Source: an uncultured Clostridia bacterium | Lineage (GTDB): Bacteria; Bacillota; Clostridia; TANB77; RGIG9151 | Direction: 5' to 3' | Length of the DNA stretch: 28,495 nt | Assembly (NCBI GenBank): GCA_934500865.1 | Contig: CAKSUD010000018.1 | Span: forward strand, 1 to 28,495 | Shown here: in pieces, positions 12,097-16,040 of the stretch | Numbering within the stretch: position 1 is the stretch's first letter | Layout of the letters: every line of letters begins with the position of its first letter | Position numbers and translations under genes: made by a program | Notes under the pieces: model-generated | Seen by the model: the letters and a program-made list of their open reading frames with translations, nothing else | Told to the model about the DNA's origin: nothing | The model's database searches: none

Positions 12097-12399
12097 TTAA
12101 TAAATACAGATTCCAACCCTGTCAATATGTTCAACCAATTCTTTTGTTGAGCAAGTATCATAGTGAACAACATCAAAAAAGTAAGGTAAAGTAGTTTCCT
12201 CTTCTAGTTCCTCCTGTATCTTAGCCACAGTGTCTACTGTTATATTCTTACCTTTTATTGCTATATCTATATCCGAACTATTTTTATATGTTCCCTTTGC
12301 TCTAGAACCAAATACGTAAGCATTCTCTACTTCATTATATTTTCTTATAACATCTTTAATTTCTCTAACCTCATCATCGCTAAGCCCTAAGCCATTCAT
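12097..12399 (-). CDS. Minimal nucleotidyltransferase (MNT / MntA-like antitoxin of a HepT-MNT module)
   Basis: 100 aa. Pol-beta-type NTase motif FGSRAKGTYKNSSDIDIAI (GSx..G...DxD). The ATG lies 1 nt after the stop of the upstream HEPN gene (TAG-c-ATG). Confidence 0.85.
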   Translation of the reverse strand: MNGLGLSDDEVREIKDVIRKYNEVENAYVFGSRAKGTYKNSSDIDIAIKGKNITVDTVAKIQEELEEETTLPYFFDVVHYDTCSTKELVEHIDRVGICIY

Positions 12400-12400
12400 G

Positions 12401-12793
12401 CTATATCTCCTCTTTTAACTTTAGATATAATTTTTTAATCATAAAATAATATTTTCCCTTTATACTTTCACCAACCGATAATGCCACACTCTCTTCATAA
12501 GTATGTGACATTAAGTTCCTTTTTTCTAAAGCATCAATCCACAATGCGCCATCATCAACTAAGTTCGCCGAAAATGCAGTCTTAATAGTTTCTCTTGGTG
12601 TACTTAATATATATCCCTCATTTTCTAAGTAATCCTTCATAACTTTCCAACCAAGTTCAAAAGTATATTCAAAACATTGAATTAACCCTTGAAGTTCAAA
12701 TTTATTTAATTCACCTTTTTCTATGAACTCAGTTAATTGGCCGAAAGCTTTTTCCAAATTAGAAAACCTTTGCTTCCAACGTATATCATGCAT
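12401..12793 (-). CDS. HEPN-domain protein, HI0074 / nucleotidyltransferase-substrate-binding family (HepT-like toxin)
   Basis: 130 aa. N-terminal IRWKQRFSNLEKAF is typical of the HI0074 family. The Rx4HxY motif RNLMSHTY is at aa 92-99 (nt 12497-12520). GGAGGGG RBS is present. Confidence 0.85.
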   Translation of the reverse strand: MHDIRWKQRFSNLEKAFGQLTEFIEKGELNKFELQGLIQCFEYTFELGWKVMKDYLENEGYILSTPRETIKTAFSANLVDDGALWIDALEKRNLMSHTYEESVALSVGESIKGKYYFMIKKLYLKLKEEI

Positions 12794-13292: not shown

Positions 13293-14336
13293 TTATAAAT
13301 TAATTAAATTTATCAATTCTTCAACTATTTTTTCTTCCGGAACTTTTTTTATTATTTCGCCCTTCTTAAACAGTAATCCACAGCCGTCGCCACAAGCAAC
13401 TCCAAAATCAGCTTCACTAGCCTCTCCCGGGCCATTCACAGCACATCCCATAACAGCTACTTTTATATTTTTATCTATATTTTCTACTGCTTTTTCAACC
13501 CTCTCGGCAATTGGTAGCATATTTACCCTAGTTCTTCCGCAAGTAGGACAAGATATAAACTCAACGCCTTTATTTCTTATGCCCATTCCCTTTAAAATCT
13601 GCCAGCCAACCTTTACCTCATCAACCGGATTAGAAGTCAATGACACTCTTAGCGTATCTCCAATTCCTTCATTTAATAAAATTCCTATTCCCATAGAATT
13701 CTTAATCGTTCCGCCAAGTAACGTTCCGGCCTCTGTTACTCCTATATGTAAAGGATAATCACATTTTTCAGACAATAATTTATAAGCTTTAATCGTATCG
13801 GGCACATTAGAAACCTTAAGTGAAACAACCATATTATTAAAATTCAAATCCTCTAAAAGCTTTACATGTTCATACGCGCTTTCAACAAGCCCATCAACAG
13901 TAACCTTTCCGTATTTCTCAATTACACGCTTTGCAAGAGAGCCACCATTAACTCCAACTCTTATCGGAATATCTCTTTCTTTTGCCGTATCAACAACAGC
14001 CTTAACTCTATCAATATCCCCAATATTTCCTGGATTAATTCTTATTTTATCAGCTCCACTTTTCATTGCTTCAATAGCTAATCTATAATCAAAATGTATA
14101 TCAGCAACAATAGGAATAGAAATTTGTTTTTTAATCTCACCTATAGCCTGTGCCGCTTCCATATCTAAAACAGCCACTCTTATTATTTCACAACCTGCAT
14201 CTGTAAGTTCTTTTATTTGATTTACAGTAGCAGCAACATCTCTTGTATCTGTGTTGCACATAGATTGAACTAAAATAGGCTCGTTTCCTCCTATATATCT
14301 ATCTCCAATTCTTACTTTCCTAGTCATTTTTCTCAT
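13293..14336 (-). CDS. ispG: 4-hydroxy-3-methylbut-2-en-1-yl diphosphate synthase (GcpE)
   Basis: 347 aa. VRIGDRYIGGNEPILVQSMCNTDT is the canonical IspG start. C-terminal Fe-S cysteines are present (CPTCGRT...GCAVNGPGE). GGGGG RBS lies 8 nt upstream. Confidence 0.93.
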   Translation of the reverse strand: MRKMTRKVRIGDRYIGGNEPILVQSMCNTDTRDVAATVNQIKELTDAGCEIIRVAVLDMEAAQAIGEIKKQISIPIVADIHFDYRLAIEAMKSGADKIRINPGNIGDIDRVKAVVDTAKERDIPIRVGVNGGSLAKRVIEKYGKVTVDGLVESAYEHVKLLEDLNFNNMVVSLKVSNVPDTIKAYKLLSEKCDYPLHIGVTEAGTLLGGTIKNSMGIGILLNEGIGDTLRVSLTSNPVDEVKVGWQILKGMGIRNKGVEFISCPTCGRTRVNMLPIAERVEKAVENIDKNIKVAVMGCAVNGPGEASEADFGVACGDGCGLLFKKGEIIKKVPEEKIVEELINLINL

Positions 14337-14364: not shown

Positions 14365-14393
14365 ATTTTATACATTTTTTTGCAAAACGTCAA
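14365..14393 (-). promoter_or_regulatory. Putative sigma-A promoter of ispG (TTGACG-17 nt-TAAAAT)
   Basis: On the minus strand, TTGACG is at 14393-14388, followed by a 17-nt spacer and TAAAAT at 14370-14365, about 30 nt upstream of the ispG ATG. Sequence pattern only. Confidence 0.5.
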
Positions 14394-14452
14394 ACTTTCG
14401 GCAATATTTTATTTAGGATATTTAAAATTGTTTTTAATTAGTGCTGTATTGT

Positions 14453-14672
14453 TAATGTGTCACACAAAATAATAGCAAATATCGCTCCAAGGACTACGTT
14501 TTAAAAGGTTCTACCCAAATTACCGACCGTCGCTCAAAGTCGACATCCTTGTCGACTCTCGCTCAAAATTTCATCCGCGAAATTTTGACGTTCTTGCCTC
14601 CGGCAAATTTGGAGAACCGAATTAAAACTCCGTAAAGTCGCTTTATTTGCTATTATTTTGTGTGACACATTA
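14453..14672. other. 220-nt near-palindromic multi-hairpin element (candidate structured sRNA or MITE); strand unresolved
   Basis: A perfect 29-bp inverted repeat, TAATGTGTCACACAAAATAATAGCAAATA (14453-14481) against 14644-14672, continues inward as imperfect pairing: 14484-14502 with 14624-14641, and 14507-14520 with 14607-14618. It encloses three hairpins at 14538-14557, 14563-14588 and 14594-14606. The interior is visibly GC-richer than its flanks. No ORF is present. Confidence 0.6.
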
Positions 14673-14691
14673 CTTACATATTTTAAACAAC

Positions 14692-14726
14692 AAAAAACGC
14701 TAAACCTTTAAGATTTAGCGTTTTTC
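14692..14726 (-). terminator. Rho-independent terminator after tRNA-Arg (bidirectional A-run/stem/T-run)
   Basis: AAAAAACGCTAAA-cctttaaga-TTTAGCGTTTTT. The 8-bp core stem is ACGCTAAA/TTTAGCGT, with a U-run on both strands. It lies 2 nt after the tRNA CCA end. Confidence 0.75.
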
Positions 14727-14728
14727 TA

Positions 14729-14805
14729 TGGTGTGCCTGAGACGATTCGAACGTCCGGCCAACGGCTTAGAAGGCCGTTGCTCTATCCTGCTGAGCTACA
14801 GGCAC
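14729..14805 (-). tRNA. tRNA-Arg (anticodon UCU), CCA encoded
   Basis: The reverse complement GTGCCTGTAGCTCAGCAGGATAGAGCAACGGCCTTCTAAGCCGTTGGCCGGACGTTCGAATCGTCTCAGGCACACCA folds by hand into a cloverleaf. Acceptor stem is GUGCCUG/CAGGCAC, D stem GCUC/GAGC, anticodon stem ACGGC/GCCGU with loop CU-UCU-AA, and T arm GGACG-UUCGAAU-CGUCU. Confidence 0.95.
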
Positions 14806-14873: not shown

Positions 14874-16040
14874 TTACAAAACACTTTCGCCGTTTCCTAT
14901 TTCTTCTACTCCCAGGTACTTCAAAATAGTTGCTGCAATATCTGTAAAACCGTGTCTTATTCCAAAATTCTTATTACCCTTTATAATCTTTCCATAAATC
15001 AAAAGAGGTATATACTCCCTTGTATGGTCACATCCAGGAGTAGTTGGGTCACAACCATGGTCAGCCGTAATCATAAGAATATCTTCTTCTTTCATATTAG
15101 CCATAATCTCCGGAATTCTTGCGTCAAATTCCTCTAATGCATTAGCATAGCCTATTGGGTCGTTTCTATGACCGTACTTCATATCAAAATCTACCAAGTT
15201 GGTGAATATAAGGCCATTATCAACTGTTTTCATATAATCTAGAGTCTTATCTACTCCGTCCATATTTCCTTTTGTATGTACTGCGTCAGTTATACCGACA
15301 CCACAGAATATATCCTCAATTTTCCCAACAGCTGCAACAGTTAACCCTGCTTCCTTTATTTTATCCAACATACTAACTCCGGTAGGTTTTATTGAGTAAT
15401 CACGTCTATTTGAAGTTCTTACAAAATCTTCTCTATTCGTTCCTACAAATGGTCTTGCAATAACCCTTGCTACTTCTCGTTCGCCTCTTAATAACCGTCT
15501 TGCAACTTCACATATTTTATAAAGTCTTTCTAATCCGAAAGTTTCTTCGTGGGCTAATATTTGGAAATTACTATCAACAGGTGATACATAAACGATAGGC
15601 TTTCCTGTTCTTAAATGTTCTTCCCCATATTCTTTCATAATATCAGTTCCAGAACCGGCAACATTTCCAATAACACCGTCTAGTCCTGCCTCTTTTACAA
15701 ACTCATTGATAAATTCCTCAGGCATTCCATTAGGATTTATTCTAAACGGAGTTTCTGTCACAATACCTGACATTTCCCAATGGCCGACAGTTGTGTCTTT
15801 TCCACGAGACTTTTCACTTAACTTTCCGTATATTCCAATAGGTTCATCGATTTTGCCAAGTTCGCTATTACCATCTATATTAGCAATTCCCAACTTTATT
15901 AAATTAGGTATTTTAAAATTCTCTTTTGCCTTAGAAACATGAAGCAAAGTGTTTGTTCCTACATCTCCAAAGTCCTTTGCATCAGGTAATTCACCAGTTC
16001 CAACACTATCCATAACAACTAAAATAACTCTTTTCATCAT
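14874..16040 (-). CDS. deoB: Phosphopentomutase
   Basis: 388 aa. KRVILVVMDSVGTGELPDAKDFGDVGTNTLLHV is the canonical DeoB N-terminus, and the metal-binding ADHGCDPT motif is present. The second ATG (16037) fits the GGAGG RBS spacing better than 16040. Confidence 0.92.
   Translation of the reverse strand: MMKRVILVVMDSVGTGELPDAKDFGDVGTNTLLHVSKAKENFKIPNLIKLGIANIDGNSELGKIDEPIGIYGKLSEKSRGKDTTVGHWEMSGIVTETPFRINPNGMPEEFINEFVKEAGLDGVIGNVAGSGTDIMKEYGEEHLRTGKPIVYVSPVDSNFQILAHEETFGLERLYKICEVARRLLRGEREVARVIARPFVGTNREDFVRTSNRRDYSIKPTGVSMLDKIKEAGLTVAAVGKIEDIFCGVGITDAVHTKGNMDGVDKTLDYMKTVDNGLIFTNLVDFDMKYGHRNDPIGYANALEEFDARIPEIMANMKEEDILMITADHGCDPTTPGCDHTREYIPLLIYGKIIKGNKNFGIRHGFTDIAATILKYLGVEEIGNGESVL

Follow-up and report, generated by a model that had tools for sequence, protein, structure and literature searches.

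A divergent, solitary TwoAYGGAY-type element probably lies between tRNA-Arg and ispG in an uncultured gut Clostridia genome

What is the 220-nt, highly self-complementary block that separates a tRNA-Arg gene from ispG in an uncultured Clostridia bacterium, and does it represent a new class of structured RNA? The block occupies positions 14453-14672 of the window, by which we mean the whole analysed stretch of 28,495 nt (contig CAKSUD010000018.1 of assembly GCA_934500865.1). A preliminary description, drawn up from the letters of the sequence alone, had read it as a structured RNA composed of a rod and hairpins and had matched it to no known family. The search with Infernal against Rfam 15 that this description had proposed returned exactly the outcome it had named as refuting: a confident match to a known family, TwoAYGGAY (RF01731), with 49.6 bits against a gathering score of 43 bits (E = 8.3e-7 in the local search, 2e-5 for the whole window). 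The match covers the complete model, is confined to the minus strand, and RF01731 is the sole family besides tRNA that exceeds its threshold. We conclude that the block is probably a divergent, solitary TwoAYGGAY copy, located on the minus strand between the terminator of tRNA-Arg and the promoter of ispG, and its membership in this family as such is very likely. This removes a false lead towards a novel RNA from the window, and the appropriate annotation is a minus-strand RNA of the TwoAYGGAY family that stands outside ispG regulation.

In its architecture the element largely agrees with the first description. An inverted-repeat search recovered the perfect closing stem, whose arms of 29 nt each are 100% complementary and enclose 162 nt; the arm 29-mer has no further match in the window at up to three mismatches, and none of 100 shuffles matched. 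Folding of the 220 nt gave -88 kcal/mol with z = -12.2 for the plus strand, and the minus strand reached -95.9 kcal/mol with z = -11.2; 0 of 200 shuffles went as low on either strand, and z-scores of -11 to -12 bear out the structured-RNA reading. The plus-strand fold reproduced the three hairpins that had been described (Table 1) and, approximately, the two imperfect inner helices. The reported GC enrichment is real and modest (0.447 in the core, 14475-14624, compared with 0.25-0.33 in the spacer around it), and a purely mechanical scan detected open reading frames (ORFs) of only 28, 30 and 44 amino acids within the element, none of them a credible gene, in line with its description as ORF-free. 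The anatomy thus comprises a long closing stem, in which 29 perfect bp are followed by imperfect helices, two hairpins with GGAU loops, and tandem G.A pairs. The latter could be provided by two GAGCGA copies, which, as read from the sequence, can pair as G.A/A.G - G-C/C-G - G.A/A.G at the base of hairpin 2. A third hairpin is optional, because the Rfam-consistent fold assigns its nucleotides to the inner helix and the 5' linker instead.

Several family traits that can be compared directly point to TwoAYGGAY. Only the minus strand displays GGA in its hairpin loops and fits the RF01731 model, which narrows the two orientations previously held plausible to one. Both loops carry GGAU, preceded by GC and AA in the window and by GA and GA in the related contig L011, and hairpin 2 (ACAAGGAUGU) is identical to loops in two rows of the Weinberg seed alignment (BAAU01005512 and BAAU01025327). 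This seed contains gut-metagenome members with the loops ACAAGGAUGU and ACACGGAUGU, its loops include AAGGAU and ACGGAU, and the original alignment carries the name 'TwoGGAY'. The supplement of Weinberg et al. 2010 (Genome Biol 11:R31) describes the closing helix P1 of the family as 'often very large', with a helix of 24 bp and just 2 mismatches as its example, and such a large P1 is present here, with 29 of 29 pairs perfect and the imperfect helices beyond. The 'two tandem-GAs' mentioned for TwoAYGGAY (PMC4333381) would find their counterpart in the GAGCGA pair. From GGA to GGA, the two hairpin loops are 27 nt apart, which we count as the fixed spacing of the family, whereas canonical copies show 29-30 nt. 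Since the long rod, the GTAAG at its base and the 27-nt GGA spacing are all outside the scoring of the Rfam model, they provide independent support for membership.

As a canonical set for comparison, we used the first 150 kb of one Agathobacter rectalis replicon (NZ_CP143948.1) and 120 human-gut loci from a pattern scan of metagenome contigs. The A. rectalis stretch holds four full copies and one decayed copy, and copies A and B, the two that were scanned with Rfam, reach 149-159 bits. Beyond the Rfam model, copies A-D continue into an outer rod of 43-48 bp that is 88-100% Watson-Crick paired (46 of 46 in copy A). Their cores are 75-91% identical and their hairpin stems covary between paralogues, while their arms share 49-63% identity versus a shuffled expectation of 49 +/- 4%. 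The 120 gut loci provided 88 unique arm pairs, with outer rods mostly of 40-52 bp, 14 of them perfect, and canonical rods are on the whole ~91% Watson-Crick paired. The seemingly random A. rectalis arms had suggested insertion of the core into unrelated, pre-existing palindromes; this idea was weakened by the sub-motifs GGCGTAAGCCCC and GCACACGTACTCTC, which are shared among the 88 arms and therefore mark the arms as homologous but fast-evolving. A leader, CCACARCGTAAGG(G), is conserved at the 5' foot of the rod; of 58 canonical copies, 42 have GTAAG no more than 15 nt from where the rod begins. Of the 73 hairpin-1 loops that the search pattern left free, 66 contain GGA (canonical hairpin-1 loops include AAGGAC), and the two GGAs are 29-30 nt apart in every one of 66 canonical copies. 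The family is multi-copy elsewhere too: as many as 3 copies lie within 3 kb, and Psychromonas also has several.

Two smaller observations concern the same set. The leader, which is not part of the Rfam model, often continues with GGCGTAAGCCCC, giving CGTAAG twice, 10 nt apart, and its GUAA could form a GNRA tetraloop. The decayed A. rectalis copy (L022:41050-41260, minus strand, NZ_CP143948.1) sits between pflB and an inserted IS607 (tnpA and tnpB); it has lost both GGA hairpins and retains short arms and GCGTAAGG, again a case of decay by internal deletion.

Like its canonical relatives, the window element combines two adjacent hairpins, with GGAY in six-base loops, fixed spacing and G.A-rich stems, with an enclosing multi-helix rod and a very long P1; it likewise occurs in gut Clostridia and in an intergenic position, with no consistent gene partner. 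Unlike them, it is AT-rich, has the loops GCGGAU and AAGGAU and displaced linkers, possesses an outer rod of 29 perfect bp rather than 40-52 bp beyond the model, is apparently solitary in at least 59 kb, and may contain an extra hairpin with a GGA triloop. Judged by its sequence, it is a distant family member, AT-rich, with displaced linkers and without the AY of AYGGAY, because its 49.6 bits stand against the 149-159 bits of the canonical A. rectalis copies.

Table 1. Positions of the element, its parts and its neighbours in the window, of the deleted segment in a related strain, and of Rpn-like loci in the gut set
Feature	Position	Strand	Basis or remark
Whole element, 220-nt TwoAYGGAY-type rod	14453..14672	minus	inverted repeat, fold, internal Rfam match
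RF01731 TwoAYGGAY match, model positions 1-168 of 168	14491..14635	minus	Infernal/Rfam
Closing stem 5' arm (extended P1), 29 nt, pairs perfectly with 14453-14481	14644..14672	minus	inverted repeat
Closing stem 3' arm	14453..14481	minus	inverted repeat
Hairpin 1: 10-bp stem, loop GCGGAU (14573-14578)	14563..14588	minus	inverted repeat and cmscan alignment
Hairpin 2: 7-bp stem, loop AAGGAU (14545-14550), sequence ACAAGGAUGU	14538..14557	minus	cmscan alignment, seed comparison
GAGCGA, 5' copy of putative tandem-GA module	14559..14564	minus	direct repeat
GAGCGA, 3' copy, base of hairpin 2	14530..14535	minus	direct repeat
Optional third hairpin UUGCC-GGA-GGCAA, GGA triloop	14594..14606	minus	folds
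GTAAG immediately 5' of rod	14673..14677	minus	sequence
TAAAAT -10-like hexamer, 7 nt before rod	14680..14685	minus	sequence
Intrinsic-terminator-like hairpin of tRNA-Arg, immediately upstream of element	14692..14726	minus	terminator scan
tRNA-Arg (anticodon tct), same-strand upstream neighbour	14729..14805	minus	tRNA search
Phosphopentomutase-type metalloenzyme gene	14874-16040	minus	domain match
ispG promoter-like site TTGACG-17-TAAAAT, downstream of element	14365..14393	minus	promoter scan
GcpE/IspG gene	13293-14336	minus	domain match
164-nt segment deleted in L012	14481..14644		bounded by 3-nt direct repeats TAT (14480-14482, 14644-14646)
Bracketed Rpn-like loci	L088:3680-6543; L091:1-3074; L140, L142, L147, L148, L061, L066, L113		PF04754

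At the locus itself, the fate of the element can be followed through strains and relatives. It is identical where IspG is identical to that of the window (L001, L002). At 99% IspG identity it is intact with one or two pair-breaking single-nucleotide polymorphisms (SNPs) in L009 and L010, and intact in L011, where all seven substitutions are confined to the core and leave arms and flanks unchanged; 4 of the 7 affect unpaired positions, 2 give G.U pairs, and both loops now read GAGGAU. In L012, also at 99%, alignment and local BLAST showed that 164 nt are deleted and that a 56-bp perfect palindrome remains. The TAT repeats bounding this segment are equally consistent with a microhomology-mediated deletion and with a target-site duplication. 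Only a remnant persists at 96% (L013, L014), with GTAAG retained in L013; read from the alignment in the minus-strand sense, the arms of these two differ from the window arms by two compensatory double transitions plus three G.U pairs. At 93% (L015, L016) the element is absent, and tRNA-Arg, its terminator and the ispG promoter are retained; these relatives lack more than the element alone and hence offer no clean empty site. The element is therefore no conserved gene of the locus but a recent and accessory insertion, found in one lineage of an uncultured species of gut Clostridia and decaying by internal deletion in some strains. The compensatory changes in L013, together with the substitution pattern and the GAGGAU loops of L011, hint at a constraint at the RNA level.

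Conservation of the helices in relatives had been suggested as a check. At this locus it is partly lacking, since close relatives either have no element or carry it truncated or deleted, whereas the family is conserved elsewhere. Within one species, the locus thereby offers intact, loop-variant, core-deleted and absent alleles, a natural series suited to metatranscriptomic or fitness comparison. Two features of the contigs themselves should be mentioned. The first 29 nt of L011 (L011:1-29) are the exact reverse complement of the right flank of the element, a fold-back at the contig end that the palindrome most likely produced as an artefact of assembly. Three Logan contigs, L003, L005 and L006, end inside hairpin 2, and L004 ends 4 nt outside the arm.

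Scans for tRNAs, terminators and promoters confirmed the placement of the element between the tRNA-Arg terminator and the ispG promoter. This position, on the same strand as both genes, invites the alternative that the block is a cis-regulatory leader of ispG, such as a riboswitch, an attenuator or a thermosensor, or that it serves in processing the tRNA-Arg transcript at its 3' end. Rfam indeed files RF01731 under the type label 'Cis-reg', no terminator was found between the element and ispG, and a 15-nt core stretch on the 5' side of hairpin 1 (14578-14592) shows 93% complementarity with 14386-14400, the -35 region of ispG. We nevertheless consider this alternative most improbable. The block is not an ispG leader, because the ispG promoter-like site (14393-14365) is located downstream of the element, which places the element outside a 5' untranslated region, and because this site is kept in relatives without the element. 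L012 encodes the same IspG protein but has a deleted element, the canonical copies have no consistent neighbour gene or orientation, and Weinberg et al. 2010 (Genome Biol 11:R31) scored TwoAYGGAY as not cis-regulatory. The 15-nt complementarity is probably fortuitous, since the match is at chance level (E = 0.69). A co-orientation of the elements with neighbouring genes, which the A. rectalis copies and the window had suggested, did not hold up across 52 canonical copies, for which ORFs were called crudely.

Several observations, taken together, weigh against our reading of the block as a TwoAYGGAY RNA. The RF01731 score is just 6.6 bits over the gathering threshold, and the window loops, GC-GGAU and AA-GGAU, depart from AY-GGAY. 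Of the conserved linker motifs (ACAG/ACACAG before hairpin 1 and CGG...CGUCA after hairpin 2), only CGG is in place in the cmscan alignment, and ACGUCA is found before hairpin 1 instead. In contrast to canonical hosts with their many copies, ~59 kb of host contig contain neither a second copy nor any other perfect inverted repeat of at least 18 nt. The element is dispensable, as it is deleted or absent in close relatives, and two strain SNPs, in L009 and L010, give A.C mismatches when read on the minus strand. The TAAAAT that had been proposed as a minus-strand -10 box is present at 14685-14680, but it lacks an acceptable -35, and the promoter scan made no call there. No convincing promoter of its own upstream of the element and no terminator after the rod emerged from the scan. 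Finally, G.U pairs exceed A.C mismatches in canonical rods by 115 to 69 in all 88 unique arms (p = 4e-4) and by 112 to 64 in the 65 arms of at least 30 nt, but de-replication to one representative per cluster leaves 44 versus 30, which is not significant (p = 0.13), and we dropped the G.U excess as proof of RNA-level selection.

The score near the threshold, the departure of loops and linkers from the consensus and an AT-rich composition unlike that of canonical copies would also be expected if the block belonged to a new structured-RNA class, unrelated to described families, and if the Rfam match were a false positive raised by generic hairpins. We regard this as very unlikely. The whole-window E-value is 2e-5 with the full model covered, features that the model leaves unscored agree with the family (outer rod, GTAAG, GGA spacing and the presence of ACAAGGAUGU in the seed), and the host belongs to the gut Clostridia, the main habitat of the family.

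Given that the block is probably a TwoAYGGAY copy, what might it do? We lean slightly towards a function at the RNA level. The element would be transcribed on the minus strand, either through read-through of the AT-rich tRNA-Arg terminator or from TAAAAT, which appears to be a weak promoter at best. In the terminator scan, this terminator was called for the minus strand only and hence not as the bidirectional one that had been proposed. The long double-stranded P1 may serve as a processing and stability stalk and, by analogy with rRNA precursors, as an RNase III-type substrate, in which case the RNA would need neither a strong promoter nor a terminator of its own. The processing stalks of rRNA precursors resemble P1 by analogy, as long, near-perfect helices made of the sequences on either side of a functional RNA would let it be excised from a longer transcript. 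As in the window, a promoter and terminator of its own were not found at two A. rectalis copies, and no T-run terminators were found after canonical rods; the absence of such signals here and at the two A. rectalis copies, in combination with the long perfect helix, suggests RNase III-type excision from longer transcripts.

The invariant GGA loops at a fixed spacing suggest a dimeric protein ligand. The two loops could bind a dimeric RNA-binding protein, for which CsrA would be the best candidate, and the RNA could then act as a small decoy. CsrA binding was proposed for TwoAYGGAY by Gardner and Eldai 2014 (PMC4333381), and we adopt this mechanism only tentatively, from motif and spacing, as a rather unlikely one. 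The small RNAs CsrB, RsmY and RsmZ, which act as sponges, likewise expose GGA in hairpin loops, and the two-site spacing of the window element would suit one CsrA dimer. They differ in that the window element has two sites only, a long double-stranded rod and no evident promoter or terminator of its own, whereas a Csr/Rsm-type sponge RNA requires an independent transcription unit with both. Rfam assigns RF01731 to clan CL00106, which we take to be the Csr/Rsm clan. Hairpin 2, ACAAGGAUGU, fits what we take to be the SELEX consensus of CsrA, RUACARGGAUGU. To our knowledge, a CsrA sponge RNA has not been described for Firmicutes as yet.

The 220 nt had no match in phages and plasmids (blastn), window-type core patterns had none in viral contigs and JGI metagenomes, and the Rfam consensus, used as a BLAST query, had none in Escherichia coli genomes and phages and matched one A. 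rectalis record in the plasmid collection. An exact 20-mer of the arm had two chance matches only, a Corynebacterium rRNA leader and a 560-nt contig, in 185,579 species-representative genomes. The idea that the arms are 'spacer-like' was rejected for the phage and plasmid collections, in that the arms of five copies match only themselves.

The main rival explanation, possible but in our view unlikely, holds that the element and its family are mainly a selfish or mobile palindromic DNA repeat, similar to miniature inverted-repeat transposable elements (MITEs), REP or Correia elements, or the dispersed solo end of an Rpn/YhgA-like nuclease cassette. The RNA fold would then be a by-product of DNA palindromy, and arm-to-arm gene conversion or the mechanism of insertion would maintain the complementarity of the arms. 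The patchy presence in a narrow clade, where the element is intact, altered in its core, shortened by the 164-nt deletion, reduced to a remnant or absent, fits this explanation, as does the 164-nt indel itself, whose 3-nt direct repeats and residual perfect palindrome could be read as an empty target site. The seven L011 substitutions are confined to the core, as if the core had been replaced, the family is multi-copy in A. rectalis and Psychromonas, decay by internal deletion recurs, and short metagenome contigs end at or inside the element. Rods are ~91% Watson-Crick paired and their G.U bias is not significant once de-replicated. Neisseria Correia, ERIC/IRU and REP/BIME repeats share with the element an intergenic, imperfect palindrome of 100-300 nt, multiple copies in canonical hosts, strain variability and a transcript that would fold into an RNase III-type stem.

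In MITE- or Correia-type repeats, the terminal inverted repeats are conserved in sequence. The solo canonical arms are only 49-63% identical, and it is the asymmetric core that is conserved; with arm sequence unconserved among solo copies, a transposase would therefore find no terminal-repeat consensus to recognise. The features that are conserved and strand-specific (GGA loops, tandem G.A and the 5' leader) point to a single-strand readout, and the covariation of hairpin stems between paralogues also argues against a purely DNA-based repeat. Neither a target-site duplication nor a cognate transposase was found for the element; at this locus, the 93% relatives give no clean empty site from which a duplication could be read. 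The window and ~59 kb of host contig hold no transposase or Rpn-like gene, that contig has no other copy, and, bar the two chance matches, none of the species-representative genomes contains the arm 20-mer.

A link to a protein-coding gene emerged from the canonical loci of gut Lachnospiraceae, and it also speaks for the selfish-repeat explanation. In 26 of the 120 loci we detected a near-identical, multi-copy gene (88-99% amino-acid identity; near full length in 20 of 26) with a PF04754 domain (Transposase_31/YhgA-like, Rpn family), which the elements bracket at fixed distances. A divergent element lies 255-470 nt upstream of the Rpn-like gene in 11 of the 13 cases with room upstream, and a convergent element lies downstream in 12 of the 16 with room, where the rod ends mostly 22-27 nt past the stop codon. 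Element-rpn units also form tandem arrays with truncated gene copies. Several of the Rpn loci represent the same hot spot, and the unit has other flanks in L066 and L113. The element-rpn-element units were compared by pairwise BLAST, as a MAFFT alignment was uninformative owing to tandem repetition, and arms proved similar between copies only in this Rpn-linked subfamily.

Proteins of the Rpn family act as toxic DNA endonucleases, have antitoxins encoded within their own genes and are active against phages (PMC10400941), and they promote RecA-independent recombination (PMC5350276). A further reading, which we consider doubtful, is that TwoAYGGAY elements are the structured nucleic-acid partner of Rpn/YhgA-like PD-(D/E)XK nuclease cassettes and not free-standing small-RNA genes, so that solitary copies such as that of the window would be non-autonomous remnants dispersed by Rpn-promoted recombination. 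Such a partner might act as DNA, in the form of a hairpin site, or as an RNA that is either a convergent antisense or a 3'-end transcript. If true, this would provide an orphan RNA motif with a function and Rpn proteins with a cognate structured element. The 40-52-bp rods, with their sequence turnover but kept pairing, the CCACARCGTAAGG leader, the invariant GGA spacing and the Rpn bracketing are handles for distinguishing a CsrA-type decoy from a nuclease-linked selfish element.

Three observations concern other parts of the locus and its surroundings. In the metagenome-assembled genome GCA_964318315.1, tRNA-Arg (L009:9531-9604) has a C for the otherwise invariant T at position 8 (GTGCCTGCAGC) and scores 63 bits instead of 69, which could be a sequencing error or a real variant. 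Between a cytidylyltransferase gene and ligA, the window carries an MNT/HEPN-like toxin-antitoxin pair (12097-12793, minus strand) consisting of a nucleotidyltransferase (PF01909-type) and a substrate-binding partner (PF08780); it is strain-variable, being found in L009, L016 and L017 and missing from L013 and L015. Synteny upstream of an SRP54-type gene differs between strains with an identical PFK protein (L024:1-4700 versus L023:1-4800), with ThiI, MutL and an acetyltransferase in one strain and the spoIIIA operon in the other, which marks a rearrangement breakpoint ~15 kb past the window end.

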